A stretch of 54,865 bases of DNA, filler included, from Candidatus Woesearchaeota archaeon (lineage in GTDB: Archaea; Nanobdellota; Nanobdellia; Woesearchaeales; BM511): assembly GCA_023266675.1 (NCBI GenBank). It is 4 parts of 4 records of this genome, joined end to end, with 100 filler letters (N's around TTAATTAATTAA, not from the genome) between each part and the next. Parts side by side here need not be neighbours in the genome. Positions count along the whole stretch, not along the records: positions 34,362 to 50,921 come from JAHFPP010000027.1; 3 more parts are not named here. One strand, written 5' to 3'. The notes beneath the pieces were generated by a model. It did not search any database. It was given only the letters and a program-made list of their open reading frames with translations, and was not told where the DNA came from. Shown here piece after piece: positions 34,362 through 50,921 of the stretch (position 1 is its first letter; every line of letters begins with the position of its first letter). The position numbers and the translations under genes are program-made.

Positions 34362-34428
34362 TAGAGCAGTTCCATCTGATATTTGAGTTCTGATTTTAGT
34401 TTTCATATTATTATAGGTCAAGGAAATT

Positions 34429-34472
34429 AAAAAAAAGAAAGAGCCTTCCGACATGACTCAAAAGGCTCTTTC
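34429..34472 (-). terminator. Rho-independent terminator fused to a motif copy
   Basis: GAAAGAGCCTT...AAGGCTCTTTC hairpin followed by T8. Confidence 0.75.
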
Positions 34473-34505
34473 AAATAAACAACAAATAAAACGTGGAACA
34501 ACTTG

Positions 34506-34577
34506 TGAGGCAGACAGGAGTTTAACACTGTGACACATGGGCTTTCGGGCCATTGCTCTACACTGAGCTACTACCTC
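34506..34577 (-). ncRNA. Degenerate tRNA-like element
   Basis: Acceptor GAGGTAG/CTGCCTC-A and D arm GCTC/GAGC are intact. Anticodon arm (loop CCGAAAG) and T arm (ACAG/CTGT, no GTTC) are imperfect. Confidence 0.6.
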
Positions 34578-34582
34578 ATCTC

Positions 34583-34614
34583 CAAATATAATCAGGGAGA
34601 CTTTAAAAATCAAT
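34583..34614 (-). promoter_or_regulatory. Bacteroidota-type promoter (ATTG-N20-TATATTTG)
   Basis: Near-match to the TTTG-N19-21-TAnnTTTG consensus, 5 nt upstream of the tRNA-like element. Confidence 0.55.
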
Positions 34615-34620
34615 TGTTTT

Positions 34621-35106
34621 TTAAAAAAGTTCAAATTTAAAGTCATTGCTAAACCTTGTGCCTGCATAACGTCCAATTGATGCTCCTCCTTTTTCAAACC
34701 AAAATTCAACAGTTAAGGCTCCTTGTTTTTCTTCATCTAAAAGAACGTTATAAAAAGGGAGAACTGACAACTTAAATTCAGCAACCATTCGACCACATTC
34801 TTTTTGTGTAAACATTTTATCTCCAACAGTTAAAAGAAAAACAATTTCCTTAAAGACCATTCTTTCAAAACTCATTTTGATTGCTTTCTCTGCAATTGCC
34901 AAGTCATCACATCGTTTCAATCTTGAAGATAGAACATCAAACAATTTTTCTGCTTCTTTGCGGTTTTCTGTATATTTCCTTCCAAACGTTTTTGTTTTAT
35001 CAACAACTTCCACTCCGAATTTATCTCCATCTCTTAACATCATAACGAAAAGCCTATTTCCTTTGTAGTTAAGCGTATTTTCTTGTATTATTCTGAAATC
35101 ATCCAT
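34621..35106 (-). CDS. Phage hypothetical protein
   Basis: 161-aa ORF. Confidence 0.7.
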   Translation of the reverse strand: MDDFRIIQENTLNYKGNRLFVMMLRDGDKFGVEVVDKTKTFGRKYTENRKEAEKLFDVLSSRLKRCDDLAIAEKAIKMSFERMVFKEIVFLLTVGDKMFTQKECGRMVAEFKLSVLPFYNVLLDEEKQGALTVEFWFEKGGASIGRYAGTRFSNDFKFELF

Positions 35107-35122
35107 AAAAACTATTATTCAT

Positions 35123-35373
35123 TTATCTCCTACTTAAAATTTCTTTTGCATTCTCCATTGCTGTTTTGAAATGTCTTGTCCTATCACTCTGTGAGCAATC
35201 TTCATCTGCATTGGTTGTCATATCATCCAAAGCATCAATTAACTCATCAACTGGTTTAAGTGCTCATCGAATATTGAAACATCCAACTGTGTTAAATCTG
35301 TTTGGTCAAGTTGACCATTGATTGCCAATTCAATTAGTTTAGCTTTGATAGATTCTGCTATTTTCTTTTTCAT
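35123..35373 (-). pseudogene. Frameshifted small phage ORF (or sequencing error)
   Basis: MKKKIAESIK...SIFDE continues as ALKPVDELIDALDD...LSRR* after a one-base shift near 35265. The span is 251 nt. Confidence 0.5.
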
Positions 35374-35382
35374 TTTTGTATT

Positions 35383-35742
35383 TTATTTAGTACCTGTAAA
35401 TATTGTTTTACGATTATGAATATATTCTTCAGCAGGAACGATGAATTCATTGTTATCGTTTGCATTAGGATTGTCGTTTAAAAACTTCTCCATAGCTTTT
35501 ACATCTCCTGAATCGGATATTCTATCCATTTCTTGTACCATTTCAGGAGTAATTCCTTCATTGTATTCTTCCAATTCTTCTGGAGTTCTATTAGATAACA
35601 TAGATAGTGCATCATCAAATATTTCCTTCATAGCCTCCTCTCTTGTTGAGAATATGGTTGGGTTGTTTTTTTCATCTACAACTGCTTCCCATCCATCAAC
35701 TAAAGTATCCCAAACGATAATAAATCCTTTTTTCTTTTTCAT
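35383..35742 (-). CDS. Phage hypothetical protein
   Basis: ORF directly downstream of a motif copy. Confidence 0.8.
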   Translation of the reverse strand: MKKKKGFIIVWDTLVDGWEAVVDEKNNPTIFSTREEAMKEIFDDALSMLSNRTPEELEEYNEGITPEMVQEMDRISDSGDVKAMEKFLNDNPNANDNNEFIVPAEEYIHNRKTIFTGTK

Positions 35743-35792
35743 GTTGTTTGTTTATTATTATAGGTCAAGTAAAATAAAAAAAAGAAAGCTCC

Positions 35793-36059
35793 TTATATTT
35801 CTTCTGAGATGAAAACAAATTTCTCATCCAAGTGATTGTAACAGATAACATCAGCAGGGAGACTTAATATTCCTTCTTCAACAAAAAAGTAAATGCTTTC
35901 ATCAATTGAACGTTCAGTTGCTCCTTTAAGTTGACCATTGTTTTTTTGTATAGCCAACTGTAAAGTTTCATCAGCAATTTCAACTGTGATTTCTCCAGTT
36001 TCTCTTGACTCCATTGTGAATGTCCTTGTTGGATATTCTTTTCCTTTGTATGTAATCAT
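35793..36059 (-). CDS. Phage hypothetical protein
   Basis: ORF downstream of a motif copy. Confidence 0.8.
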   Translation of the reverse strand: MITYKGKEYPTRTFTMESRETGEITVEIADETLQLAIQKNNGQLKGATERSIDESIYFFVEEGILSLPADVICYNHLDEKFVFISEEI

Positions 36060-36140
36060 TTTATTTAAGTGTTAGGGTTTCTTATATTCTTATAGGTCAG
36101 ACTTATTAAAAAAAAGAAAAGGGAGACTTACTCCCAATCT

Positions 36141-36713
36141 TTAATCTTCAGGAAGATAACCTTTTAGGTTTTTTGCAGGACAAAACATCAATAATTCATC
36201 AATGGCTGTCATATCTCCAACTCTAACATCTTCTTTGATGCGTTCAAGAACCAAATCAATTACAGCTTGCTTAATAGCTTTTTGTTCTTCTTTTACTTCT
36301 TCAATTGCCTCTATAACAAGTGGGTCTTGAAAATCAGCTTCTGTGATTGTTGGATTTGTGCCTCTAATAACTTCTCCGTCAATGGTAACTTCGGCAACCA
36401 CTCTTGCTGTGTCAGAATTATCATCATCATCAGTATAGCAATCAATTGTAATATTTCCTGTATCAGGGTCAGTATAGTCAGTTTTAACTTCTATAAAGAT
36501 TTGCATTGGTTCTTTTGTTTCAGGCACAACAACTTTCCAGTTTTTTCTATCTAAAGGAATATCGTATTTTATTTGAGCCTCAGTAACTACACAAGTCTTC
36601 CCATAATTAAAATTGCTTACGTGAATACAAATCATTGTATCTCCTGCCTTTGGTTCTACTTCTGAGATAAAGACATTTTTAAATTTCTTAACTACCATTT
36701 TATCTGTTTTCAT
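36141..36713 (-). CDS. Phage hypothetical protein (acidic)
   Basis: 190-aa ORF followed by a GGGAG/CTCCC terminator. Confidence 0.8.
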   Translation of the reverse strand: MKTDKMVVKKFKNVFISEVEPKAGDTMICIHVSNFNYGKTCVVTEAQIKYDIPLDRKNWKVVVPETKEPMQIFIEVKTDYTDPDTGNITIDCYTDDDDNSDTARVVAEVTIDGEVIRGTNPTITEADFQDPLVIEAIEEVKEEQKAIKQAVIDLVLERIKEDVRVGDMTAIDELLMFCPAKNLKGYLPED

Positions 36714-36733
36714 TTTTCTTTTAAATTAAAGGA

Positions 36734-36970
36734 TTAAATTGAACTCCATACAATTGATATTGTGTAACCACTTTGATTAGCGTAATAGCCATTTTCAATG
36801 TGAAAATCAATATCATCAGGGCTTGCGCCATTTATAACTGCTTTATCAACAAAACATTTTTCGGCTTGTTCAACAACATCCTGAGATAATTGTTCTTCTT
36901 CAATTCCAAAGCTTTCAATTGATGAAACAGCATTATCTGTGTTTGATTCAATTACATTTATAATTCTCAT
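36734..36970 (-). CDS. Phage hypothetical protein
   Basis: ORF downstream of a motif copy. Confidence 0.75.
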   Translation of the reverse strand: MRIINVIESNTDNAVSSIESFGIEEEQLSQDVVEQAEKCFVDKAVINGASPDDIDFHIENGYYANQSGYTISIVWSSI

Positions 36971-37024
36971 GTCTTTATTTATTTGTTATATTATTATAGG
37001 TCAAGGAAAAGAAAAAAAAGAAAT

Positions 37025-37342
37025 TTACAATGCTTCAAGTTCTTCCAACAAACATAGTGCATCCAATACAGAAACAACATTTTCATTGATTGCCATACGA
37101 ATAGACAATTCTTTTTTTGTTGCGCCATGTCCTGAATAATAATCGTTTTGAACAAAATATCCATCTTTTGTTACACCAATAATTTCTTGATTTGATATTG
37201 TACCGAAAGAAAAGAATTCAAGATTATCTTCATCCGTTTCTCCAAGGAAGTCCCTGTTGATTCTTTCTAAGTTTTCTCTAATAAGTACAATTGCTTGTGC
37301 TTCAATTTCGGAAACTTGACTTCTAAGTGTTTCTGCTGTCAT
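37025..37342 (-). CDS. Phage hypothetical protein
   Basis: ORF flanked by motif copies. Confidence 0.8.
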   Translation of the reverse strand: MTAETLRSQVSEIEAQAIVLIRENLERINRDFLGETDEDNLEFFSFGTISNQEIIGVTKDGYFVQNDYYSGHGATKKELSIRMAINENVVSVLDALCLLEELEAL

Positions 37343-37396
37343 GTCGTTATTTATTTGTTTATAAAGTTATAGGTCAAGGAAAAGAAAAAAAAGAAA

Positions 37397-37633
37397 CTAT
37401 AAACTCATCTTTCTTTTGATATTGAATATTTGCAGGGTTGAGAAACCTGCTTTTTTCAATTTGCCTTCCCAAATTGTTTTAGCCTGAGTAGGAGTTACTT
37501 CGCCATCGTGATGATAGTTTTCAGGCGCTTCCATTGGTTGAAGCAAAATTTCCTTTTGAAGACTATTCAACTTAGCAGGGTCAAAGCCCAAGGCGTTTAT
37601 TTGTTCGTTTTGATAATTTTCGTATGTATCCAT
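37397..37633 (-). CDS. Phage hypothetical protein
   Basis: 78-aa ORF. Confidence 0.75.
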   Translation of the reverse strand: MDTYENYQNEQINALGFDPAKLNSLQKEILLQPMEAPENYHHDGEVTPTQAKTIWEGKLKKAGFSTLQIFNIKRKMSL

Positions 37634-37646
37634 TTTTGTTTTAAAT

Positions 37647-38027
37647 TTAATTAACGGTCATAAATTTACTAAATAATAGATTCACATTTTTATATCTTTC
37701 AGTCATTACAGCCTGATATTCTGCTTCACGTATTTTTTTATCTTCAGCACTTGTAAGATGATTAACATGAATTGCTTTCAACCACGCTTCCATATCATTA
37801 CCAAAATCTTGTGGGCGTTCTTGTGTTTGTTTGGCGTTGTGATACTTAGATTTATTATAATCAGGTACATAGTCGCTATTTCTACGAATGTCTTGAATTC
37901 GTTTGATTAACGCAGTATGTTTTTGGTCATCAACAAATTGTGCCAGTCTTTCAACTGCAGTTGACTCAGTATTAAGACCAAGTGTGGTTGCTACTTTGTT
38001 TATGAATATTTTGATTTTGTTTTCCAT
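37647..38027 (-). CDS. Phage hypothetical protein (probably leaderless)
   Basis: ATG lies 5 nt after the motif core. Confidence 0.75.
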   Translation of the reverse strand: MENKIKIFINKVATTLGLNTESTAVERLAQFVDDQKHTALIKRIQDIRRNSDYVPDYNKSKYHNAKQTQERPQDFGNDMEAWLKAIHVNHLTSAEDKKIREAEYQAVMTERYKNVNLLFSKFMTVN

Positions 38028-38061
38028 AATATTATAGGTCAAAGAAAATAAAAAAAAGAAA

Positions 38062-38289
38062 TTAATTAGAAATTTCAATTGTATCTAACAACATATTTCT
38101 TGCAACCAAGATAAAATCTTCAAATAAAAGGTCTTCATCTTTTTCAACAATTTTAATTGGTGCGCCAGTCTCATGGTCAGTAAGCATCAAGCTCCTATTA
38201 ACCGTGCTATATATGATGTCTTGCTCAAATCCTATAAGGTGAAAGCAAAATATTTTGTCTGTTATTTTAACTGCTAAGTTTGTGTCCAT
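38062..38289 (-). CDS. Phage hypothetical protein (probably leaderless)
   Basis: ATG lies 5 nt after the motif core. Confidence 0.75.
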   Translation of the reverse strand: MDTNLAVKITDKIFCFHLIGFEQDIIYSTVNRSLMLTDHETGAPIKIVEKDEDLLFEDFILVARNMLLDTIEISN

Positions 38290-38333
38290 AATATTATAGG
38301 TCAAAGAAAAGAAAAAAAAGAAATTGAAATTTA

Positions 38334-38365
38334 TTTGGTTTATATGAAACTATTTTATATATTTG
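38334..38365 (+). promoter_or_regulatory. Bacteroidota-type sigma promoter (TTTG-N20-TATATTTG) for the tRNA island
   Basis: TTTG at 38334-38337 and TATATTTG at 38358-38365. Confidence 0.7.
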
Positions 38366-38433
38366 TCGTATGAATTAGTGAGAATCATTTTTTTCTCATA
38401 TTTAGTAATAGAAAGTTCTTTATAAAAATATAT

Positions 38434-38506
38434 TGCGGGGTGGAGCAGTTGGTAGCTCGCCAGGCTCATAACCTGGAGGTCGTCCGTTCGAGTCGGGCCC
38501 CCGCTA
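38434..38506 (+). tRNA. tRNA-Met(CAT), initiator-like
   Basis: Cloverleaf with CCAGG-CTCATAA-CCTGG anticodon arm. The 1:72 mismatch is typical of bacterial tRNA-fMet. Confidence 0.92.
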
Positions 38507-38572
38507 CAAGTAAAAATAACATTCCTCTTAGTCCCTGTGAAAACAAACTTTGAGGTAAAACAAAAAAATTAG

Positions 38573-38653
38573 ATGAAAGCATTAGTTAACATATTAGTAA
38601 GTGAACGTGAAGAGGAACGCCAAACGGCAGGCTTCACTATGACTATGAGTTAA
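38573..38653 (+). CDS. Putative Glu-rich leader peptide MKALVNILVSEREEERQTAGFTMTMS
   Basis: 26-codon ORF with an A-rich leader and four Glu codons in six, immediately upstream of a terminator and two tRNA-Glu genes. Confidence 0.55.
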   Translation: MKALVNILVSEREEERQTAGFTMTMS

Positions 38654-38685
38654 CAATTAAATAAAGAAACTTAAAAATCAAAGAG

Positions 38686-38714
38686 GATAGCCAGCAATGG
38701 CTATCTTTTTTTTT
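38686..38714 (+). terminator. Rho-independent terminator or attenuator
   Basis: GATAGCCA-GCAA-TGGCTATC followed by T9. Confidence 0.85.
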
Positions 38715-38724
38715 GTACATATAT

Positions 38725-38798
38725 GGCGCTATCTTATAAGGGTAGTAAAATGGGCTTTCACCTCATGAATCGGAGTTCGACTCTCCGTAGCGCTACCA
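38725..38798 (+). tRNA. tRNA-Glu(TTC) with encoded CCA
   Basis: GGCGCTA/TAGCGCT acceptor, ATGGG-CTTTCAC-CTCAT anticodon arm and CGGAG-TTCGACT-CTCCG T arm. Confidence 0.88.
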
Positions 38799-38801
38799 AA
38801 T

Positions 38802-38873: not shown

Positions 38874-38874
38874 C

Positions 38875-39360
38875 TTATTTACATAGCTTACTTATGATTA
38901 ACTTTTCCTGCTTAATTCTTAAATTTGCTATTGAATCTTCAGATTTCTGTTTTGCAGCTTCAATTTTACTATAATCTGGTTTATCGAAATAATCATATTT
39001 AGCTAATGTTATATCTGTGTCTTCTTCATGATTAAAATCCAATGAATCAGGAGAAATCAAGGTAAGTGAAGTACCTATTGCACTTGTCAATTGTTTTATT
39101 TTAATATTACAATTTTTGTTTTCCCAAAATTCAATTGTGAAAAATTCATCATCCATAGCAAACATATTGTTTTTATGAGATATTGTATCTTCCTTATTTA
39201 TAAAAGTCCAGTCAGATGAATGTTCTTTCATATTTTCAATGATTATTTCTGAAAGTGTTTTTGGAGTTTCAGGAGAGTTTTTTATTGATGTTTTTATGAA
39301 CAATGCTAAAATAGTTCCAAGAAATGCTACTGTCAATATTGTGCCTAATACTTTTTTCAT
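38875..39360 (-). CDS. Phage membrane-anchored hypothetical protein
   Basis: N-terminal hydrophobic helix. Downstream of a motif copy. Confidence 0.75.
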   Translation of the reverse strand: MKKVLGTILTVAFLGTILALFIKTSIKNSPETPKTLSEIIIENMKEHSSDWTFINKEDTISHKNNMFAMDDEFFTIEFWENKNCNIKIKQLTSAIGTSLTLISPDSLDFNHEEDTDITLAKYDYFDKPDYSKIEAAKQKSEDSIANLRIKQEKLIISKLCK

Positions 39361-39532
39361 AATTTATTAATTAGATTGAAACTTTATTGTTTCTTAATCT
39401 TATAGGTCAGACAAAACAAAAAAAAGAAACCTTCTTGGATTTCTCAGGAAGGTTTCTCGAATACAGATATATGACAATTTTTATTTTCCATGTTATCAGG
39501 GAGTTTTCTCTGTTATAGAAATATGACGATTT

Positions 39533-40485: not shown

Positions 40486-40767
40486 TTAATCTACAAATTT
40501 ACCTTTACCGTGTTTCCCAGCTAATATTTCATTGTGAATTTTCATCGTCATTACAAAAATATCTGATTCAGGATAGTCTCCAGTAAAATAAGGACAAATT
40601 TTTTCAAGAAATACTTTTGATTCTAAGCGACTGCAGAACTTATGTCTTGTGCCACTTTTGATAATATATATCTGATTTTCACGAAAGAATTTAAAGCTGG
40701 TTGAATATTCAACGTTCTTATTGATTCTAAACCATTCTTTTTTCGGTGCTTCTGTTAATGTTTCCAT
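40486..40767 (-). CDS. Phage hypothetical protein (probably leaderless)
   Basis: ATG lies 5 nt after the motif core. Confidence 0.75.
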   Translation of the reverse strand: METLTEAPKKEWFRINKNVEYSTSFKFFRENQIYIIKSGTRHKFCSRLESKVFLEKICPYFTGDYPESDIFVMTMKIHNEILAGKHGKGKFVD

Positions 40768-40808
40768 AATATTATAGGTCAAGGTTATTAAAAAAAAGAA
40801 AGGGAGAA

Positions 40809-41806: not shown

Positions 41807-42211
41807 TTATAAATTATTCATCATTTTATAAGTTTCCTCGTCAATCTCATCAGTAGAATCAACACTTCTTGCATCTTCGCCATCAATTTTTTTTTGTTCT
41901 ACGGCTAATGCAATTATGTCTTCTTCTTCTAATTCAACATCTGATTCAACTGCTACGGAGAAACCGTTTTTTCGACTATAAAATACGTGTGCTTCATAAA
42001 AGAATTTTACAGTTTTTGTTTCTTGTCCGCATACAAGACAATTGTGATTTTGAGAAGGAGAAATTGTTTCACAAGCATTGCAGCGTTCCCAAGCTAATTT
42101 TAATTTTTTAAATTTACTGTCAGAAAAAGAATTGATATGTTCAAATACTGCTGCTTGTCCTGAGTCTTCGTAAAGGTCTTTGCAAGTTTCATTAAGTGTT
42201 TTTTTTGACAT
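41807..42211 (-). CDS. Phage hypothetical protein with a zinc-ribbon-like CxxC..CxxC
   Basis: CNAC...CLVC. Downstream of a motif copy. Confidence 0.75.
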   Translation of the reverse strand: MSKKTLNETCKDLYEDSGQAAVFEHINSFSDSKFKKLKLAWERCNACETISPSQNHNCLVCGQETKTVKFFYEAHVFYSRKNGFSVAVESDVELEEEDIIALAVEQKKIDGEDARSVDSTDEIDEETYKMMNNL

Positions 42212-42252
42212 GATGTTTTTTTATTTGTTTATATTATTATAGGTCAAGGTTT

Positions 42253-42519
42253 TTATAAAAAAGAATCGGCAATTTCACAAAGTTGTTCTAAGGTCAAACA
42301 AGAATGGTTATAAGAATATCCATTATTATCAATCAATATTTTACTGGTTATTTCAGTTAAATAACGTCCACCTTCTAAATTAAACATTTGGTCATCTTGA
42401 ATTTTTAAAACCAAATCGGTTATATGTTCGCTTTCAACGCCTTTTTTCTTAATTAATTTTTCAATCTTAACAGCAACTTCTTTTTCAAGTTCTTGATATT
42501 TTTGTGTTTTTGTTTTCAT
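42253..42519 (-). CDS. Phage hypothetical protein
   Basis: The 3' end overlaps the next motif copy. Confidence 0.75.
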   Translation of the reverse strand: MKTKTQKYQELEKEVAVKIEKLIKKKGVESEHITDLVLKIQDDQMFNLEGGRYLTEITSKILIDNNGYSYNHSCLTLEQLCEIADSFL

Positions 42520-42539: not shown

Positions 42540-42863
42540 TTAAATTAATTTTTGTCCCATACGTTCCCATTCAATAGAATCATCTAATGTTTGTTCTGAA
42601 ATAATTTCAGCTATAACCATATTGCTATCATCTCCATATTGTTCTCTGAGGTCTTCAAGTGAATTGTAATATCCACTTACATAATCACGAATGTTTTTTT
42701 CAGTATAATCTGCAAAATCAATTTCTTGCATTACATTTGCATGACGTTCATATACTTCAAAATTCAAGTCAGAACATTTTTTCACCCATTGTTCTGTTGC
42801 TTTGCTGCCATCGGTACAGATAAAACCTGCCTCTTTTAATGACTTTATTGACATTCTTTTCAT
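42540..42863 (-). CDS. Phage hypothetical protein (probably leaderless)
   Basis: ATG lies 5 nt after the motif core. Confidence 0.75.
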   Translation of the reverse strand: MKRMSIKSLKEAGFICTDGSKATEQWVKKCSDLNFEVYERHANVMQEIDFADYTEKNIRDYVSGYYNSLEDLREQYGDDSNMVIAEIISEQTLDDSIEWERMGQKLI

Positions 42864-42897
42864 AATATTATAGGTCAAGATTAATAAAAAAAAGAAA

Positions 42898-43155
42898 TTA
42901 TGGTTGATATTCAAAACCTTCAAAGTCTTCAACATATTTAGAAACTATTGCGTGAATATTTTCTTTTGTATCAGAACAATTGTTGGATAACTTTTGAATT
43001 AAAGTTCCATAAGCAGAACATCCATTGTTATATAGTTCAACAGCATAATGATTTGCAGCAGTCTTTTTATTGTCTCTATAATATTTCACTTCAGGAAAAT
43101 ACTTTGCATCCAATTCTTTATTTACTTTATTGAAGAAGTCATTTACAAGTTTCAT
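42898..43155 (-). CDS. Phage hypothetical protein
   Basis: Flanked by motif copies. Confidence 0.78.
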   Translation of the reverse strand: MKLVNDFFNKVNKELDAKYFPEVKYYRDNKKTAANHYAVELYNNGCSAYGTLIQKLSNNCSDTKENIHAIVSKYVEDFEGFEYQP

Positions 43156-43211
43156 GTTGTTTGTTTTGATATATTATTATAGGTCAGAGAAAAGATAAAA
43201 AAGAAAATATT

Positions 43212-43340
43212 TTATTCCCACATTCCTGGGAAGCGTGGTGTTTCTTTTTTAGAATTTTTATACCTGTGATATAGCGATACTATTATTAGATAGACTACAC
43301 ATAAGCCTAAACAAATTAAAAAAAGAAATAGCATATTCAT
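43212..43340 (-). CDS. Small single-TM phage protein
   Basis: MNMLFLFLICLGL... flanked by motif copies. Confidence 0.65.
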   Translation of the reverse strand: MNMLFLFLICLGLCVVYLIIVSLYHRYKNSKKETPRFPGMWE

Positions 43341-43419
43341 GTCTTTTGTTTTTGATATATTATTATAGGTCAGATAAAACAAAAAAAAGAAAGGGAGACT
43401 TTCGCCTCCCCTTCGTTTA

Positions 43420-43751: not shown

Positions 43752-43964
43752 TTATAGATATTTAGTATCACAATGGTCTTCGATAAATTCTTCAACTTCT
43801 TCAGGTGTCATTTCATCATCAAAATGAACACCTATAAGTTCATCAATTAATTCATCATTTACTTTAACTTCTACACCATCAGCAAGGTTTGTTCCATCAG
43901 TATCAATCATTGCATCTCTTAATGTAACTGTTCCGAATTTTGTTTCTACTGTTAATTCTGCCAT
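43752..43964 (-). CDS. Phage hypothetical protein (acidic)
   Basis: Downstream of a motif copy. Confidence 0.75.
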   Translation of the reverse strand: MAELTVETKFGTVTLRDAMIDTDGTNLADGVEVKVNDELIDELIGVHFDDEMTPEEVEEFIEDHCDTKYL

Positions 43965-44018
43965 GTTATTTGTTTTTTATTTATAGGTCAAAGTTATTAA
44001 AAAAAAGAAAGGGAGACT

Positions 44019-44363
44019 TTATAAACTTTTTGCCAATTTTAGCAAATCTCTTTTCCAATCTTTAAAATCTTTTAAGCCCTGAGTAATCGTAAAGGCAGCT
44101 CTATAATCTTTCATTTCACGGTGCAACTCAATTTCTTCATCAATATCAATGCTATTGACACGCTCCAAAAACAATTCTTTAAAATCTTTTTCGTTTTTCG
44201 GGTCTTTATCAGTATCTCTGAAATCAACAAATACAATTTGATTAACACCGCCATTGGTGTATGTATTTAATTCATATCCACAAAGTTTTTTTCCTTCTTT
44301 GTACTCATCAATTGAGATATTAATTAAGTTTGATGCTGCGATTTTATCAAATATTTTTTTCAT
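44019..44363 (-). CDS. Phage hypothetical protein
   Basis: Start MKKIFDK lies downstream of a motif copy. Confidence 0.78.
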   Translation of the reverse strand: MKKIFDKIAASNLINISIDEYKEGKKLCGYELNTYTNGGVNQIVFVDFRDTDKDPKNEKDFKELFLERVNSIDIDEEIELHREMKDYRAAFTITQGLKDFKDWKRDLLKLAKSL

Positions 44364-44412
44364 GTTGTTTGTTTTATTATTATAGGTCAGTGAGAATAGA
44401 AAAAAGAAAGAA

Positions 44413-44604
44413 TTATTTTTTGCCAGGGAAAGGTGCATATTCAACTTTCCACTTTCCTTTTACCCAAGTAACTTTTCCACCTCTTTCGTGTATTATTTTT
44501 GAAATAGCAACAATTGTTTCTGCTTTATCGAGTTTTTCTTCAAGTGTAACAGTTGGAATTTTCTCAACTGAATTTATTAACTTGTTATAGAATTTGAGTG
44601 TCAT
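44413..44604 (-). CDS. Phage hypothetical protein
   Basis: Flanked by motif copies. Confidence 0.72.
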   Translation of the reverse strand: MTLKFYNKLINSVEKIPTVTLEEKLDKAETIVAISKIIHERGGKVTWVKGKWKVEYAPFPGKK

Positions 44605-44654
44605 AGTTTTTTATTTATATAGGTCAAGCAAAAAGAAAAAAAGAAAGGGAGACT

Positions 44655-45398
44655 TTACGCTGCTGTTCGTATTGCAAAATTACTTTCAAATGCAATCTTA
44701 TTGTTTGCGCCTTTATTGGTAACAATCTTATATTTAAGCCCAACAATAACACCTTTCGGGTCAAGATGGCGTAAATCATTCAGGTCGCCATTAATTACCT
44801 TGTATCCATTAAATTTTTTTGGCAATTTATCAAATACGACTGCAACATTAATTCCTTTTTTGATTAGTTCCATAGCAATTGCCTCATTGGTTTCAGAACG
44901 GCTGAATATCAATCTGTAATTTTTAGGCAATTCTTTATTGAATCTAAGATAGTTTTTTGTGTAGTCATAAAATTGAACAGATGGAAACAACTCAAATATT
45001 GTTTTATTATCTACAATCTTAAAGGACTCCCAAGAAATATCGCTTGTTCCATTCAATCGGATTGTTACCTTTGTTCCTTCAAGTCTATGTTTTAATTCAA
45101 TTTGAGCAATCTCAATATAAAGCATATTTAAGAACTTTGTTCTATCTGAAAGAAAAAACTCAGTTTTATTTGTTCTGCCTTTTTGGATATTGGTCATTGA
45201 GCCGTGTCCTGACATAAATAAACAGGCTGCAGCACATCCCGCACTTGCTTTTGGACAAATACTTTTTCCAGTTGAGTTTTGTCTATGTGGAGACATATAT
45301 AAAATATATGTTTTCCAGCCCAGTTTTTCACCTTTGATTGTCTTTGCGTTATTGGTGGTCAGTAAAGACGTTGGTATGTAATAGCTTTTTGGTTTCAT
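44655..45398 (-). CDS. Gp88-like phage protein (radical-SAM-like Cys motif)
   Basis: CPKASAGCAAAC, RLNGTSDI.WE, FYDYTK and GD..DLR.LDP.GVIVGLK. ATG lies 5 nt after the motif core. Confidence 0.75.
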   Translation of the reverse strand: MKPKSYYIPTSLLTTNNAKTIKGEKLGWKTYILYMSPHRQNSTGKSICPKASAGCAAACLFMSGHGSMTNIQKGRTNKTEFFLSDRTKFLNMLYIEIAQIELKHRLEGTKVTIRLNGTSDISWESFKIVDNKTIFELFPSVQFYDYTKNYLRFNKELPKNYRLIFSRSETNEAIAMELIKKGINVAVVFDKLPKKFNGYKVINGDLNDLRHLDPKGVIVGLKYKIVTNKGANNKIAFESNFAIRTAA

Positions 45399-45636
45399 AT
45401 TATTATAGGTCAGGTAAAAGAAAAAAAAGAAAATGCAAGTAATTACTCCACGTTTACTCCCAATCAAAATATAAGGCAGGAGTGGATTACCTCTCGGAGC
45501 CTGTTTCACTTTCCGTGCTTATATCCTTATAGGTCAGAGAAAAGAAAAAAAAGAAAGGATTGAGTTTGGCCCAAAAAGAATGAGGACCGCTCCTTTTGGA
45601 AACGGCCCTCTATTGCTACCCCTAACAATAATATCT

Positions 45637-45894
45637 TTATTTTGTGTGAATGTATGCTGAACTTTTATCTTCTAGGTAACGGTCAACATTTTGATATAGA
45701 ATTTCACAATCATTAACTTGTTCTAGCTTAGCCATAAGTAAATCATCATATTTATTCATTTCGTCAATACCAATGGAATAATCTCCATTTTTGAAGTATG
45801 TGCCTGAATCAAATACTTTTAGTTCATCTTTCTCGATTCTAGAATCAAAGAAGGCATCAAGCATTTTCTTTTGTTTAAGTGTTAGTTGTCTCAT
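45637..45894 (-). CDS. Phage hypothetical protein
   Basis: Downstream of a motif copy. Confidence 0.75.
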   Translation of the reverse strand: MRQLTLKQKKMLDAFFDSRIEKDELKVFDSGTYFKNGDYSIGIDEMNKYDDLLMAKLEQVNDCEILYQNVDRYLEDKSSAYIHTK

Positions 45895-45935
45895 ATTGTT
45901 TTGTTATTATAGGTCAAGGAAAATAAAAAAAAGAA

Positions 45936-46190
45936 TTAAAGTCCTGCAAGTTTTTTGGCCCTTTCGATAGCCAATTCTTTTGTTGTTTCACTTGTTGATA
46001 GATTATTGCCTTGAATAGCAAATTTGTGGCTTGTCATATATTCAGAAGTAACATTATCTAAATTCAGTTGTTCTCTTTCTTTTGAGCCTTTAGGAAAGTT
46101 TTTTGCCTCAAATGTTCTTTTATAAACGGAAAATGTACCGTTTGTTTGTCCAGAAGTTGTTGCTTTAAATGTCGCAATTGGTCTATTCAT
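45936..46190 (-). CDS. Phage hypothetical protein
   Basis: Flanked by motif copies. Confidence 0.75.
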   Translation of the reverse strand: MNRPIATFKATTSGQTNGTFSVYKRTFEAKNFPKGSKEREQLNLDNVTSEYMTSHKFAIQGNNLSTSETTKELAIERAKKLAGL

Positions 46191-46234
46191 TTGTTTTTAT
46201 TATTATAGGTCAAGCAAAAGAAAAAAAAGAAACT

Positions 46235-46417: not shown

Positions 46418-46448
46418 TTTGTTTGAGTTTAAAGTGAAAATTATTTGT

Positions 46449-46648
46449 GGGCTGTGAGTGGCACGACCACCCGACCTATAAACCCTTCCCAACCACTTCA
46501 AGGAGCTGAACTTCCTCCTATGCCTCATTGGTATCGTTTTACGCATCTAAGGCTTAAAACATAATAGCACTTGAAGTTACCTTGATACCCTGTTCAGATA
46601 AGTTTTAACACCTATGAGCATCTGCCTTATAATTAACCTTAACAGTCC
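46449..46648 (-). ncRNA. Candidate multiply pseudoknotted ncRNA (about 200 nt)
   Basis: At least six complementary 6-9 nt segment pairs, in a region richer in GC than its surroundings. Confidence 0.55.
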
Positions 46649-46664
46649 TTGTATTTATTATAAG

Positions 46665-46841
46665 CTAAAAAGAAATATTATTTGATTTCAATACTTCCAT
46701 TAATTCCTCGCAGTCCATAACACACCAGTCTTTCCCATCAAACCAAGCAAGGTCTAAATCAACCAATTCGTTTTTCAACTGTTCAGTTACTTCAATAGTA
46801 CGCTGTGTAGGTTCGGAATCTACTAAAAATAATTTTATCAT
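46665..46841 (-). CDS. Small phage hypothetical protein (58 aa)
   Basis: MIKLFLVDSEPTQ...NNISF*, with an A-rich leader. Confidence 0.6.
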   Translation of the reverse strand: MIKLFLVDSEPTQRTIEVTEQLKNELVDLDLAWFDGKDWCVMDCEELMEVLKSNNISF

Positions 46842-46865
46842 TTTGTTTTTATATTAAAGTAAAAA

Positions 46866-47099
46866 TTAATCTTGTTTTTCTCCATCTATATATACAGTAT
46901 CTTCATCTGCATTTGTAAAGTCTTTAATGATTGTCCCATCGGGAAGTTCAATAAATTCTTCATCCACATAGTACAAATCTTCATCATCAACATCCACAGA
47001 TTCAATGTTTGATACTGTTTTTGTTTCTATGTCAAAGTCGCAGCTTGTTTTAAAAATGCTATCTCCGTTATCCCAACTACTTACAAATGTTGCTTTCAT
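46866..47099 (-). CDS. Phage hypothetical protein (very acidic)
   Basis: Downstream of a motif copy. Confidence 0.75.
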   Translation of the reverse strand: MKATFVSSWDNGDSIFKTSCDFDIETKTVSNIESVDVDDEDLYYVDEEFIELPDGTIIKDFTNADEDTVYIDGEKQD

Positions 47100-47142
47100 G
47101 TTTTTGTTTTTTATTATAGGTCAAGGAATTTAAAAAAAAGAA

Positions 47143-47445
47143 TTAAACTTCGTCTGCATCAACAATTTCATATTTTTTACTTTCAATTTTCTTTGATATA
47201 GAAGAACCTTTAAACATATAATCAAGGTCATCTTTGTCCATATCATTTATAGGATAGCCATCAGAAGTGCCTCTACTTATAACTTTTAATTCGCCATCAA
47301 CTTTTACAAAACCATATATTTTGTCACTTCCATATATTTTGTCACTTCCATCAAGTCCGCCAGTACAAAGAAAAGTATCTTGTCCTAAGTCTAATCCTTG
47401 TCCTTCAGGAAGGAATGATAGCATTTTTATTAATTTCTTTTTCAT
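47143..47445 (-). CDS. Phage hypothetical protein
   Basis: Start MKKKLIK lies downstream of a motif copy. Internal tandem GSDKIY repeat. Confidence 0.75.
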   Translation of the reverse strand: MKKKLIKMLSFLPEGQGLDLGQDTFLCTGGLDGSDKIYGSDKIYGFVKVDGELKVISRGTSDGYPINDMDKDDLDYMFKGSSISKKIESKKYEIVDADEV

Positions 47446-47491
47446 GTGTTTTTGTTTTTTATTATAGGTCAAAGAAAAGGAAAAAAAGAAT

Positions 47492-47869
47492 TTATTTAAA
47501 AAGTTCATCAAATTGTTTCTTGGAATAGACACTTCCTGTTTTATACTCAGCATCTTTTTCTGAAAATTCAAGGTTGCCAGCTTCATCAAGTGCCAAACGC
47601 TCTGCTTCTGCTCTATTTGATGCCTCAACTGTAATTTCTTTTGAAGACCAAGATGTACGAGTTACAGATACAATGAATTTTTCTTTTTCAACATATTCTA
47701 TTTGGCTAGGAGTTACAGCAAATCCAAATACTATGTTATAAAGAGGATGGGCAGTTAATCTATAACGACCATTACCAATACAATGCTCTTCAATTAAAAC
47801 TATTTCTCCTTTTTTAAGAGATTGTCCAAACTTATAGTTCTTGCCTTTTTTTATAATTGCTTTTCTCAT
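47492..47869 (-). CDS. Phage hypothetical protein, C-terminus DpnD/PcfM-like
   Basis: F.VSVTRT.....ITVEA.N..EAE..A pattern. Confidence 0.6.
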   Translation of the reverse strand: MRKAIIKKGKNYKFGQSLKKGEIVLIEEHCIGNGRYRLTAHPLYNIVFGFAVTPSQIEYVEKEKFIVSVTRTSWSSKEITVEASNRAEAERLALDEAGNLEFSEKDAEYKTGSVYSKKQFDELFK

Positions 47870-47948
47870 TGTAGTTATTTGTTTTTGTTTATATTATTAT
47901 AGGTCAAAGAAAAGAAAAAAAAGAAAGGGAGACTTTACTCCCAATCCT

Positions 47949-48359
47949 TTATTCAATTCCAATATATTCACAGGCTGCTTTAACAGTAAAGCTATATTCA
48001 ACATTTTCCCACATTGTAATACCATCAACATAATCCGCTGTTTGGTCGGGCTGTTCTTTTAAGGCTTTACGTAATATTTTAACTTGCATTGAAATTTCTT
48101 CATCATTGCTGCCTGACAATATTTGCCCTGCTTTACGAATGATTAACTTTTCCGTATTTTCTTCTATCTGTGCAGGGAGCGATTGAACTGTACACCAACG
48201 GTGCATAAATTCTCTTTTTTCTCCATCAAACCACACACGCAGAATTAATCCACCATGTAAAAAATTCATTTCAGCTTTCCAATCTTTACCATTGGTAACT
48301 TTTTCCATTTCGGACTTGTAGAACGCTTTTGCTTCTTTAAGAAATTTTGAATTTGTCAT
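47949..48359 (-). CDS. Phage hypothetical protein
   Basis: Flanked by motif copies, with a terminator downstream. Confidence 0.78.
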   Translation of the reverse strand: MTNSKFLKEAKAFYKSEMEKVTNGKDWKAEMNFLHGGLILRVWFDGEKREFMHRWCTVQSLPAQIEENTEKLIIRKAGQILSGSNDEEISMQVKILRKALKEQPDQTADYVDGITMWENVEYSFTVKAACEYIGIE

Positions 48360-48417
48360 TTTTTATTTATTTAGGGGTTTATATGTTATTATAGGTCAAA
48401 GAAAAAGAAAAAAAGAA

Positions 48418-48552
48418 TTAACATCCTGCCATAACATCAACAATTTGATTGTCAAGATTTTTGAGCCATTGCTCGTATGTTAATGGCACTGAATATGCAG
48501 ATGCAGTTTCAACATATAGTTTATAGGCTGCAATATGACAAGTTTTTTCCAT
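48418..48552 (-). CDS. Small phage hypothetical protein (44 aa)
   Basis: TAATG coupling to the upstream ORF. Confidence 0.55.
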   Translation of the reverse strand: MEKTCHIAAYKLYVETASAYSVPLTYEQWLKNLDNQIVDVMAGC

Positions 48553-48839
48553 TATTCGTATAGAGTTGCATAATTAACTTGAAGAAAAATTATATCTTCA
48601 ATATCTTCATAGCTGATACCTGCAATTTTTATAACTTCATCTTTAAGACCACGATATTTTTTTGTAACCTCATAGATTCCATAATTCGCAGAAGCAGAAA
48701 CGCACTTCAGGTCTTTAACCTTAATTTCCATAAGTTTTTCAATTGCAGTTTTAACCTTTTCATCTGCAAAATTTTCTACAACCATTGCTTTGCTTGAACT
48801 GTGCAAGTTTGTAATTAGTACTAAGTTTTTTGTTTTCAT
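48552..48839 (-). CDS. Phage hypothetical protein (probably leaderless)
   Basis: ATG lies 5 nt after the motif core. Confidence 0.75.
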   Translation of the reverse strand: MKTKNLVLITNLHSSSKAMVVENFADEKVKTAIEKLMEIKVKDLKCVSASANYGIYEVTKKYRGLKDEVIKIAGISYEDIEDIIFLQVNYATLYE

Positions 48840-48872
48840 ATTATTATAGGTCAAGGAAAATAAAAAAAAGAA

Positions 48873-49265
48873 TTAGAAGTGGTGTCCGCATTTAAAACAT
48901 ACTTCGTAACCTGAACGTTGACGTACATCAGTATATCCACACGAAGGGCATTTCTGTTCAGGCTCAAAGGAAATAATAACTGGATTGTCGATAATTGCTT
49001 TGCTGATTTTTTTTGAAAATAAATCTGTAATATAATCTTGAACTCTATCATGTTCAATATCTCCATTCAATGAATTAAGTAATGTTTCAAGTCCAACATA
49101 ATCTTGTTTAACGAGTTCTATCTTGCCTCTTACACTTTCAGCTTGTTTTTGCTGAGTTTTTGTCCAACCAATAGAATCGGTGAAGTTTGCAGGATTATGG
49201 TCGAACTCTTCAAGTTCATCATCCAATAAAGCTGCACCTGAAAGATAATTTTTGGAGTAATTCAT
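48873..49265 (-). CDS. Phage protein with a C-terminal zinc ribbon
   Basis: CPSCG...CFKCG. Confidence 0.78.
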   Translation of the reverse strand: MNYSKNYLSGAALLDDELEEFDHNPANFTDSIGWTKTQQKQAESVRGKIELVKQDYVGLETLLNSLNGDIEHDRVQDYITDLFSKKISKAIIDNPVIISFEPEQKCPSCGYTDVRQRSGYEVCFKCGHHF

Positions 49266-49311
49266 TTTGTTTGTTTTTTATTATAGGTCAAGGAAAATAA
49301 AAAAAAGAAAC

Positions 49312-49647
49312 TTATATATCTCTCAGCTCAATATAAATTCCACTTTGATTTAAAAGAAAACCAATATCTCTGATTGCGTTTTTTTCACTTGAAGCAATGA
49401 TTGAAAATCCATGAACATCATATTGTTTCCATTTAGGAAAATCCGTCATTCTTTCTGAATTGTGTTTCTCCAGGCTCAAAAGAAATTTGGCTCGTCTTTT
49501 TTCCAACTCAATAACTTCCTCTTCAGGTGATAATTTTCTTGGCTGTGGTTTATATCTTTGTCTTGGTAAACTCATTCCTGAGCCGCTAACTCCGCCCATT
49601 ATTGCAGCCATAGCCATTATAGAATATATACTTCCTCTCATACTCAT
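49312..49647 (-). CDS. Phage hypothetical protein
   Basis: 111-aa ORF. Confidence 0.7.
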   Translation of the reverse strand: MSMRGSIYSIMAMAAIMGGVSGSGMSLPRQRYKPQPRKLSPEEEVIELEKRRAKFLLSLEKHNSERMTDFPKWKQYDVHGFSIIASSEKNAIRDIGFLLNQSGIYIELRDI

Positions 49648-49669
49648 TGTGTCGTGTTTTATTATAAAT

Positions 49670-49834
49670 TTATGATTTTACTATATAACCAATTGAAATA
49701 AGATAATATGCAAATCCTGTTATTCCTAATAGCAATAGAAATACTTTTACAATCCAATTTAGAAAATCGTTTTTATTCCAAATAATTCCAAGAGCAAGAA
49801 ATGCGATTGCGGATACCAATAGATAAGTGTTCAT
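49670..49834 (-). CDS. Small two-TM phage membrane protein (54 aa)
   Basis: MNTYLLVSAIAFLALGIIW..., downstream of a motif copy. Confidence 0.65.
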   Translation of the reverse strand: MNTYLLVSAIAFLALGIIWNKNDFLNWIVKVFLLLLGITGFAYYLISIGYIVKS

Positions 49835-49874
49835 AGTTTTTATTATTATAGGTCAGAGATAGCAGAAAAAAGAA

Positions 49875-50273
49875 TCACTTTCTTTTTTGATAGCCTTTTA
49901 GTTTTTTTCTTTGTTTAGAAACTTCCCAAGGTTTCTTTTGAGCTTTAATAAAAACTTCAGGTAATTGTTCGGGTGCGGTAATTACAATTGAAATAGGCTC
50001 AATCTTTGAAATATCAAAAGGGAGAGATGGGCGAATATCCTGAATTTTATCTGCATCCATTACTCTTTTTTGGTCAGATATAGGGAGGTCAGCAATATTT
50101 ACCATAATAACATCATGTCGTTTGCTCATAGTAGCCATTAATGCAGCGCGAGCGCCATCTATTGCTCCTTCGCCTATAAGTACGACCTGAAACTTTTTTT
50201 CATCGGCAATCTTGATTATTTCAACAAGGCTCTTGCCAATAACCATTATGTTTTTTCCTGATTCGTTTTCCAT
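49875..50273 (-). CDS. Phage hypothetical protein (probably leaderless)
   Basis: ATG lies 5 nt after the motif core. Confidence 0.75.
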   Translation of the reverse strand: MENESGKNIMVIGKSLVEIIKIADEKKFQVVLIGEGAIDGARAALMATMSKRHDVIMVNIADLPISDQKRVMDADKIQDIRPSLPFDISKIEPISIVITAPEQLPEVFIKAQKKPWEVSKQRKKLKGYQKRK

Positions 50274-50477
50274 ATTGTTATAGGTCAAAGTTATTAAAAA
50301 AAAGAAAGAGCAAAGAAATTAATCTTTGCTCCAATTGGCGAGAGGTTTATTCATGTGCAGACGTTTACGAACCATCTACCCACTTCGACCAAATAGTTTA
50401 CGCTCCTGTACACAAAGCACTATCTGTTCACCCCATCCTTTTCCGCTATGGACGGAACGGGAACCCCTCAATTATCT

Positions 50478-50876
50478 TTAAATTTCTTTGCCATTTTCAT
50501 CAGTGAAGTCCCAAAAGTACAAATAATCTTGCATAACCAATGTTTGACAATCTTTTGGCAGGTCAGAAAACTTTATTTTTTTTCCCAAATGTCCGTATGA
50601 AGGACGGTCAACTGGCTGAAATTCACTTTGTCCGTGCATACCTATACCTTGTGGGTGAAAAGGCGCACCGCTCATACCAACATAATCAAACCAATGTTTT
50701 GTTTTACCTCTGTAATTTCCTGTATAAACAACTGTATAACGGTCAACAGTTCCATTTTCTTTTTCAGAACCACCGTTATCATAACAACGAATATAACGTG
50801 GAACTCCATTTGGAATAAGTCGATTTTTACGTTCTTCTTTTTTTAATTCTTTTTTACTTAAGGTTGCTGTTTCCAT
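50478..50876 (-). CDS. Phage hypothetical protein
   Basis: IRCYDNGG...DRYTVVY. Downstream of a motif copy. Confidence 0.8.
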   Translation of the reverse strand: METATLSKKELKKEERKNRLIPNGVPRYIRCYDNGGSEKENGTVDRYTVVYTGNYRGKTKHWFDYVGMSGAPFHPQGIGMHGQSEFQPVDRPSYGHLGKKIKFSDLPKDCQTLVMQDYLYFWDFTDENGKEI

Positions 50877-50921
50877 TTGTTTTTTGTTTTATCTTATAGG
50901 TCAAGTAAAATAAAAAAAAGA

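Follow-up and report, generated by a model that had tools for sequence, protein, structure and literature searches.

We analyzed a stretch of 54,865 nucleotides of DNA, here called the window, from a genome bin of a Candidatus Woesearchaeota archaeon. One of its contigs, C68 (positions 34362 to 50921; 16,560 bp), is a one-direction array on the minus strand, with about 43 small open reading frames (ORFs) and 29 copies of a 37-nt motif. From sequence, we infer that this motif is probably a promoter and that its likeliest reader is the host core RNA polymerase joined by a phage-encoded sigma factor of the extracytoplasmic function (ECF) type, whose gene lies on contig C10 of the same bin. C68, C3, C10, and C74, together referred to as the array contigs, most likely belong to a lytic phage of Bacteroidota with a large (probably jumbo) genome and were misbinned with a DPANN archaeon.

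A motif of fixed geometry precedes the small genes of C68

The 9-mer TGACCTATA occurs 29 times in the window, always on the minus strand (34412 to 50903), where 0.39 copies are expected; 100 dinucleotide shuffles gave a maximum of 3. The count of 29 same-orientation copies in the preliminary description of this DNA is thereby borne out. Other bin contigs with multiple copies are C3 (35), C74 (29), and C10 (7). Single matches on C4, C9, C40, and C55 have no T-run and were set aside as chance. In C68, 28 of 29 copies fit TTC-T(5-9)-N(8-12)-TGACCTATA, and the 29th (50895) is cut by the contig end. The full motif of 37 nt reads tTTCTTTTTTTT-n-TTTTCyT-TGACCTATAAtAATATA. Among 97 copies from the array contigs, the three bases of TTC at -19 to -17 are found in 97, 97, and 96, so that the 16-nt spacing between TTC and TGACCTATA reported earlier holds across all four contigs. 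TTC, six Ts of the run, and TGACCTATAA each show no change or a change in a single copy. Conservation spans -20 to +16 and ends there, with nothing conserved outside the block and neither flanking arms nor symmetry. A weight matrix at a threshold of at least 18 bits found 105 copies in 56 kb (C3, 41; C74, 29; C68, 28; C10, 7), 6 of which bear CGACCTATA, and none on the other 79 bin contigs.

The placement of the motif is as regular as its sequence. An ORF-opening ATG lies 5 to 40 nt downstream of 28 of the 29 C68 copies, and the remaining copy (45528-45536) precedes a small structured RNA. On the array contigs an ORF starts within 60 nt downstream of 91 of 102 copies, and the previous stop codon lies 0 to 10 nt ahead of TTC in 58 of 99, which upholds the earlier statement that copies sit just upstream of start codons and often just after a stop. 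A GC-rich, terminator-like hairpin stands against the T-run in 20 of 99 copies (8 of 28 in C68). Since most copies have no such hairpin, the T-run belongs to the conserved signal and is more than the tail of a terminator. Most copies contain TATAAT, a perfect sigma-70 -10 hexamer, without TTGACA at -35. As a sigma-70 element, this hexamer was rejected for its closeness to the start codons (3 nt before the ATG where the ATG offset is +5). The preliminary description had called the motif unlike sigma-70 geometry; this needs amending for the -10 hexamer that most copies do contain.

The motif copies (candidate promoters) of C68 are listed below, all on the minus strand, with ATG offsets in nucleotides from the end of TGACCTATA to the ATG.

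50887-50921, minus: motif copy, cut by contig end; ATG +18; ORF 50478-50876 (132 aa)
50271-50307, minus: motif copy, upstream hairpin; ATG +5 (leaderless class); ORF 49875-50273
49839-49875, minus: motif copy; ATG +12; ORF 49670-49834
49274-49310, minus: motif copy; ATG +16; ORF 48873-49265
48837-48873, minus: motif copy; ATG +5; ORF 48552-48839
48382-48418, minus: motif copy; ATG +30; ORF 47949-48359
47890-47926, minus: motif copy, upstream hairpin; ATG +28; ORF 47492-47869
47455-47491, minus: motif copy; ATG +17; ORF 47143-47445
47107-47143, minus: motif copy; ATG +15; ORF 46866-47099
46196-46232, minus: motif copy; ATG +13; ORF 45936-46190
45900-45936, minus: motif copy; ATG +13; ORF 45637-45894
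45520-45556, minus: motif copy before small RNA; no ORF start within 60 nt
45457-45527 (ends approximate), minus: small structured RNA, short family variant; core ...GGTAATCCACTCCTGCC, then U-rich tail; no Rfam match
45396-45432, minus: motif copy, upstream hairpin; ATG +5; ORF 44655-45398 (247 aa; Pfam GP88, 141 bits)
44610-44646, minus: motif copy; ATG +13; ORF 44413-44604
44373-44409, minus: motif copy; ATG +17; ORF 44019-44363
43974-44010, minus: motif copy; ATG +17; ORF 43752-43964
43356-43392, minus: motif copy, upstream hairpin; ATG +23; ORF 43212-43340
43170-43206, minus: motif copy; ATG +22; ORF 42898-43155
42861-42897, minus: motif copy; ATG +5; ORF 42540-42863
42230-42266, minus: motif copy, head of four-gene unit; ATG +26; first ORF 41807-42211
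40765-40801, minus: motif copy, upstream hairpin; ATG +5; ORF 40486-40767
39393-39429, minus: motif copy, upstream hairpin; ATG +40; ORF 38875-39360
38287-38323, minus: motif copy; ATG +5; ORF 38062-38289
38025-38061, minus: motif copy; ATG +5; ORF 37647-38027
37360-37396, minus: motif copy; ATG +25; ORF 37025-37342
36987-37023, minus: motif copy; ATG +24; ORF 36734-36970
36083-36119, minus: motif copy, upstream hairpin; ATG +31; ORF 35793-36059
35751-35787, minus: motif copy; ATG +16; ORF 35383-35742 (119 aa)
34404-34440, minus: motif copy, upstream hairpin; ATG +5; ORF runs past contig end

The exact bipartite motif gave 3 single matches in the viral_contigs collection, 54 loci in genome_contigs, and more than 148 loci in metagenome_contigs, the last from groundwater, sediment, soil, and mat samples and mostly arrays on short contigs. 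The spacer between the halves varies in sequence elsewhere at a fixed length, so the earlier description of the motif as bipartite is upheld. A blastn search of deposited phages with the motif and the small RNA gave chance-level matches only.

An ECF-type sigma gene lies behind a copy of the motif

SigW and RpoE exemplify autoregulated ECF sigma regulons. The sigma factor encoded on C10 (239 aa) matches Pfam Sigma70_r2 (36.9 bits) and r4_2 (29.9 bits), both above the cut-offs, with no region 3 match. Among NCBIfam models, it scores 73.6 bits against TIGR02937 (sigma70-ECF; cut-off 42.9) and reaches no equivalog cut-off. Its start lies 32 to 42 nt past a motif copy in all four loci with a visible start, namely, C10 (42 nt) and three independent metagenome loci (L237, L148, and L201). 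This gene arrangement suggests that the sigma factor has the own-promoter feature of ECF regulons. The genes flanking the C10 sigma gene had no Pfam match at E values up to 0.01, and no anti-sigma factor was recognized; a novel one is possible. The preliminary description had advised a weight-matrix scan and a search for a polymerase, sigma factor, or recombinase on linked contigs. The first gave the copies described above, and the second gave the sigma gene and, among the 118 array proteins scanned, no recombinase.

Related phages pair variant sigmas with variant candidate promoters

We scanned viral_contigs with the core of the small RNA and recovered four large records, G011 (188,933 bp), G012 (142 kb), G013 (88 kb), and G014 (169 kb). 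G012 to G014 look like one phage recovered from separate samples. With CheckV completeness at 36 to 74%, we estimate full genomes of roughly 220 to 255 kb. Among the genes of G014 are those for a terminase large subunit, a DNA ligase, an endolysin, and a Dda-like helicase; this record also has many homing endonuclease genes and the gene for a second, RpoD-like sigma factor (phrog_351), which is the larger of its two. This second sigma gene and the terminase gene are at L324:10382-11320 (minus) and 11521-12423 (plus). The terminase was found with PHROGs after Terminase_6C had given no match in G011, G012, or G014; its match covers only a 300-aa ORF, and the gene may be split.

All four records encode a homologue of the C10 sigma (E values of 1e-43 to 1e-48). 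In viral_contigs, the C10 sigma found nothing as a single query, and alignment queries found either two weak matches or the same four records only. There are 74 copies of GTAACTTTTT-N10-CGTTATA in G012 and 75 in G014; all but a few (71 to 72) share one strand, in a block that spans about 44 kb. The G012 promoter has the canonical ECF form, GTAAC-N15-CGTTATA. G011 carries 13 copies of TTCTTTTTT-N9-CCCTATA, which run up to the cut contig end. The sigma genes of G011 and G012 each start about 30 to 35 nt past a copy of their own promoter type. Sigma factors of the three lineages are mutually 32 to 37% identical. The putative recognition helix, which we take to be that of region 4.2, is similar between the two lineages of TTC type, but the GTAAC-type (G012) sigma has a different one. 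Three sigma variants matched with three promoter variants in one architecture are what a phage-encoded, self-activating sigma regulon would be expected to look like.

Predicted transcription start and regulon

Counted from the end of TATA, the ORF-opening ATG comes after exactly 5 nt in 24 of 102 copies on the array contigs, in 9 of 71 copies in G012, and in 4 of 12 copies in G011. All three lineages also have a second class, at about 23 to 29 nt. The sixth base past TATA is A in 94 of 97 copies. So sharp a 5-nt class in three different promoters would be best explained by leaderless mRNAs beginning at that A, in agreement with the start about 6 nt past TGACCTATA that had been predicted. A leaderless start at this A would make C(C/G)T(T)ATA the -10 element, and this would agree with the "CGT box" that part of one report places at -10 in ECF promoters of Flavobacterium (PMC9723704).

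In the mechanism that we propose, TTC and the T-run would form the -35 side of the promoter, and (TGA)CCTATA, as the counterpart of the ECF CGT box, would form the -10 side. Transcription would begin at the A six bases past TGACCTATA. About a quarter of the genes would then be leaderless, and the rest would have A-rich leaders of 12 to 40 nt without Shine-Dalgarno sites. Because the sigma gene itself has the array promoter, the array would be switched on as one self-reinforcing regulon of about a hundred units of one to four genes, together with several small-RNA genes. Each repeated promoter would in addition set off one unit from the next, and at these borders cassettes would come, go, and change order, in the way described for the promoter-early stem-loops (PeSLs) of T4-type phages.

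If this is true, one phage ECF-type sigma controls about a hundred separately promoted genes and small RNAs, far above the usual cellular ECF regulon. The three related phages would be a natural set of sigma/promoter pairs for studying changes of ECF specificity, including an unusual T-tract -35 element and a spacer longer by 3 nt, and one may ask how a hundred promoters keep pace when their sigma changes. Bacteroidota have few genetic parts, and strong, compact promoters able to drive leaderless mRNAs, together with their own sigma, would be of use there.

Cassette order is shuffled between related arrays

The array G002:C435 and contig C3 have four homologous anchor genes in the same order, with eight, two, and zero genes between successive anchors in C3 versus one, zero, and one in G002. 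Eleven cassettes are common to G012 and the array contigs, in a different order on every contig, and 10 of the 11 lie within 84 nt of a G012-type promoter. Cargo is common across the lineages, and the promoter always matches the resident sigma. Unlike the shuffled cassettes, the module around the sigma gene is strictly collinear. By analogy, these changes of gene order fit a unit-wise turnover like that at PeSLs, and recombination inside the motif may underlie them. The preliminary description had proposed the motif as a site of cassette exchange, and the shuffled and inserted genes of relatives speak for that proposal at the level of gene order.

The array contigs derive from a phage

The window consists of four contigs (C66, C67, C68, and C81) joined end to end, out of a bin of 83 contigs (1.22 Mb). 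The linkers, N44-TTAATTAATTAA-N44 (44 N on each side of a 12-mer), occupy 17246-17345, 34262-34361, and 50922-51021 and are artificial. The feature under study is exactly the whole of C68, which has a linker on each side; hence, gene neighborhood across linkers is not valid evidence. Pfam matches in the other parts of the window (NMD3, tRNA intron endonuclease, NFACT, and a Hel308-type helicase) are genes of a DPANN-type archaeon. We rejected them as context for the array because they stand on separate contigs with no physical link to C68. The sigmas are bacterial, and hence the array element is not archaeal. Shine-Dalgarno-like sites precede 2 of 83 array ORFs versus 312 of 1,129 ORFs across the rest of the bin. 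Also in line with a phage, C68 has tRNA genes (given below). When the rest of the phage was sought in the bin, 50 ORFs on eight compositionally odd contigs (Pfam) yielded archaeal housekeeping functions and no phage hallmark. The bin scores as 95.9% complete and 0.9% contaminated despite its 56 kb of phage DNA, a contamination that slips past marker-gene checks.

The motif strand of the array contigs holds 142 ORFs of at least 30 aa (median, 88 aa), 43 of them on C68. There are just three weak paralogue pairs among the 142, and so the four contigs are not copies of each other. A C10 module (ParB-like, 353 aa, 71 aa, sigma, 88 aa, and 157 aa) is collinear with G011 at 36 to 57% identity, and 22 of the 142 proteins have homologues in the 192 kb examined of the G011-G014 phages. 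Together, the collinear module and these homologues identify the four contigs as fragments of a related large phage. The host is probably a member of the Bacteroidota: multi-copy motif clusters in genome_contigs are restricted to records titled Bacteroidota or Bacteroidetes, and most of the closest cellular sigmas belong to that phylum or its relatives.

Two contig ends were noted in passing. The end of C74 (oriented 15147-15396; L003:1-250) and the start of C68 (window 50678-50921; oriented 1-244) are 84% identical over 250 bp, beginning inside a motif copy. The two may be strain variants or a duplicated cassette, which may explain the assembly break. At the start of C3 (L001, about 600-1000), two motif copies point leftward and the rest rightward, which looks like a divergent array head such as those of the chromosomal islands described below.

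Which factor reads the motif, and for what

Several observations weigh against a phage sigma that reads the motif as a promoter. The motif does not have the ECF hallmarks AAC (-35) and CGT (-10); it has TTC and CCT. The -35 C and TATA are 21 nt apart in the C68 lineage versus 18 nt in both sister lineages, the three extra bases being TGA, and no ECF sigma is known to tolerate a 3-nt shift in spacing. The covariation of sigma and promoter comes from only three lineages. C68 and the sigma gene are on different contigs, linked by binning and the common motif only, and the only RNA run of the source sample yielded coverage at a tRNA-like stretch alone. The exact motif also precedes genes in Bacteroidota islands with no phage-type sigma nearby or elsewhere in the metagenome-assembled genomes (MAGs), so a factor other than the C10 sigma may read it; each such host has one conserved SigW-like sigma whose putative region 4.2 helix resembles that of the phage. 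For the cassette part of the proposal, no nucleotide-level breakpoint has been mapped to the motif and no excised circle was seen, and contig joints and loose ends in DNA of the source sample are overlaps of about 24 to 37 nt inside the repeat.

The islands (L062-L065, L296, and L297, in Bacteroidota MAG contigs G001 and G003-G006) are about 7 to 12 kb long. Each is bordered on one side by a tyrosine integrase gene and also has a small serine recombinase gene, besides 5 to 10 small genes, including DUF2958 and DUF6876. Each of these small genes stands behind an exact copy of the phage motif, and the clusters often begin with a back-to-back divergent motif pair. They adjoin defense genes (BREX, restriction-modification, and GmrSD). 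Four protein families are common to the islands and the phage arrays, which suggests that the two exchange cassettes. No sigma gene was found near the islands in the 19 to 20 kb examined, and no phage-type sigma was found elsewhere in those MAGs. Five Bacteroidota MAGs each have one SigW-like ECF sigma of about 205 aa (L300-L304), the nearest cellular relative of the phage sigma. The gene for this sigma comes directly after a coding region; no adjacent anti-sigma gene was noticed, and the neighbors were not scanned.

It is possible, though we think it unlikely, that this SigW-like host sigma reads the motif and that the phage sigma is a copy boosting the same regulon or serving other promoters. 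All five motif-bearing MAGs contain one strong homologue (E values of 1e-32 to 1e-34) and no phage-type sigma, and the motif-driven island genes, a resolvase gene included, have no sigma gene near them. The two sigmas have FSTWL (region 2) and an "LP.GTVKA" helix (region 4.2) in common, and an infecting phage needs some host factor for the first sigma transcript. Set against this, the motif (up to 1 mismatch) occurs in host genomes only in islands or arrays and at one stray site, not upstream of ordinary genes; the promoter class changes with the phage sigma over three lineages; and phage and host sigmas are just 24 to 29% identical. If the phage sigma alone reads the motif, the islands would be silent until infection. 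We raise only tentatively, as a doubtful proposition, that the motif is a signal common to jumbo phages and host islands, which would then fire as a block upon infection. The islands could be phage-exploiting satellites or infection-triggered defense islands.

A primary role in recombination, as an integron-like junction or the site of a small serine recombinase with promoter activity secondary, seems to us quite improbable. Such a role would account for a one-direction array of small, unrelated cassettes, for their shuffled order between relatives, and for the resolvase gene that stands directly behind the motif in L063, L065, and L297 and one gene further in L062 and L064. It is at odds with the Pfam scan of 118 array proteins, in which no integrase, resolvase, or other recombinase was matched, and with a conserved block that ends at 37 nt without arms or symmetry. 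Moreover, homologous G012 cassettes carry a different, canonical ECF promoter, and the motif keeps a fixed distance from start codons and an RNA gene.

The preliminary description had offered a phage-encoded RNA polymerase or sigma factor as the reader. The sigma alternative is favored by the ECF-type gene and the three sigma/promoter pairs described above. There is a very slight chance that the motif serves a single-subunit (T7-like) or other phage RNA polymerase, with transcription starting at the invariant A directly after TGACCTATA. The motif is long, contiguous, nearly invariant, and followed after CTATA by A in 96 of 97 copies, and in this it may resemble T7/SP6-class promoters. The +5 class of start codons fits a start five bases further on, however, and a sister lineage has a textbook ECF promoter in the same architecture. 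Pfam RNA_pol (PF00940) found no match in the bin or in G011-G014, in a search of incomplete records without a positive control.

That the T-run and box are terminators or RNA-processing punctuation within one long transcript is the least probable of the explanations considered, since, although the copies with a hairpin look like normal intrinsic terminators, 79 of 99 have none, the invariant box follows the T-run and keeps a constant distance to the start codons, and divergent back-to-back pairs stand at array heads.

Array proteins and a small structured RNA

Protein profiles were scanned with the 118 array proteins of at least 60 aa. Six exceeded the curated Pfam cut-offs: DUF932, DUF6900, a ParB-like protein, a UVR-motif protein, GP88, and the 239-aa sigma (regions 2 and 4). 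PHROGs matched 13 of the 118, none of them structural. The cargo had been thought to be anti-defense or host-takeover proteins, for which DUF932, the ParB-like protein, and a Lar-like match below the Pfam cut-off are hints only. The genes had also been called ORFans; this does not hold for 32 of the 142 array ORFs, which have BLASTP homologues in other such arrays or in islands. One of the C68 proteins (ORF 35383-35742), for example, has homologues at 50% identity in a Bacteroidia chromosomal island and at 37% in phage G011.

The small RNA belongs to a family of about 55 to 75 nt with three or four helices, a conserved loop GUUAAUCCNCU, and an end ...CAGGGTTAATCCnCnCCTnCC that runs into a U-rich tail. 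Every copy stands immediately after an array promoter. Genomes have several copies each, and all three promoter lineages contain the family. The array contigs contain seven copies behind ORF-less motif copies, and other arrays contain more. Besides the C68 copy (window about 45457-45527, minus), they are at the following positions.

L003:14948-15041, minus: small RNA
C10, oriented about 10523-10600: small RNA
L001:3118-3211, plus: small RNA
L001:8081-8174, plus: small RNA
L001:4254-4347, minus: small RNA
L001:9743-9836, minus: small RNA

A four-helix model of 16 sequences has 92.7% of cells paired and compensatory changes at 9 of 13 pairs; slid controls gave 22 to 44%. The predicted fold is thus backed by covariation. 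The RNA had no Rfam match at E values up to 0.1.

Relation to known systems

Integrons comprise an IntI integrase, an attI site, and hairpin attC sites downstream of the cassettes. Small, unrelated genes that all point one way and are joined by a repeated element give the array an integron-like look. The C68 lineage differs in having no recognized integrase or hairpin-forming attC, in an asymmetric junction that lies upstream of genes at promoter distance, and in cassettes that would be individually promoted.

Phage sigmas such as SPO1 gp28 and T4 gp55 redirect host RNA polymerase and drive middle or late genes from short motifs. Like these sigmas and those of group 2 jumbo phages, the C10 sigma would be the product of a phage lacking its own polymerase and would steer that of the host to phage promoters; the difference lies in the targets, a hundred small accessory genes and small RNAs. 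In the part of an overview that covers them, the group 2 sigmas are minimal and RpoD-like, and the term "ECF" is absent from the whole overview (PMC7824862).

The likeness to ECF regulons lies in a sigma with regions 2 and 4 only, a bipartite promoter (C and then a T-run for the -35 side, a C-N-T box for the -10 side), a sigma gene behind its own promoter type, and a sister phage with canonical GTAAC-N15-CGT. AAC and CGT about 16 nt apart are found in G012 (18 nt to TATA) and not in the C68 lineage, which has TTC for AAC, CCT for CGT, and a spacer 3 nt longer than those of its sisters. Further differences are about 100 target promoters in a virus versus a handful in a cell and the lack of a recognized anti-sigma, the 83-aa gene after the C10 sigma having no Pfam match. 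According to part of a report on ECF classification, phage ECFs are not captured by it (PMC7826278).

PeSLs, as portions of two reports describe them, stand between small genes of T4-type phages (Arbiol et al. 2010 [PMC2839356]; Comeau et al. 2014 [PMC4122927]). To the extent of those descriptions, both systems belong to large lytic phages, in whose variable regions many copies of a promoter motif stand between small genes of mostly unknown function; units are gained, lost, and reordered from one relative to the next; and a fifth of the copies in the C68 lineage also have a terminator hairpin. PeSLs are sigma-70-like early promoters for the host main sigma, each with a stem-loop, whereas the promoter of the C68 lineage is ECF-like, most likely needs a phage sigma, and in most copies has no hairpin. 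C68-type arrays form one continuous block of about 100 units, and PeSLs occur in scattered regions. Mini-circles and breakpoints in the motif were demonstrated for PeSLs, whereas the C68 lineage offers a comparison of gene order only.

We read the array as a new variant that combines known kinds, namely, phage sigma regulons and PeSL-like cassette arrays. Literature on phage ECF sigmas, Bacteroidetes jumbo phage sigmas, and PeSLs, supplements not covered, described no such array among the matches listed, and a full-text literature search for the 9-mer likewise gave nothing on phages or promoters among those listed.

Other features

The remaining features of C68 are as follows.

34506-34577, minus (array strand): fourth tRNA-like match; Rfam tRNA, 39.3 bits; not called by ARAGORN
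34621-35106, minus: 161-aa gene; 27 to 38% identity to genes of L062, L064, and L065
38434-38874, plus: three tRNA genes (Met, Glu, and Glu); ARAGORN; Rfam tRNA, 59, 52, and 46 bits

The tRNA trio lies on the strand opposite the array and has no motif copy of its own. The family of the 161-aa gene also occurs directly upstream of the resolvase gene in motif-bearing Bacteroidota islands. Elsewhere in the window, contig C66 of the DPANN bin encodes a protein with a GGDEF diguanylate-cyclase domain (11159-11869, plus), which is unusual for archaea.

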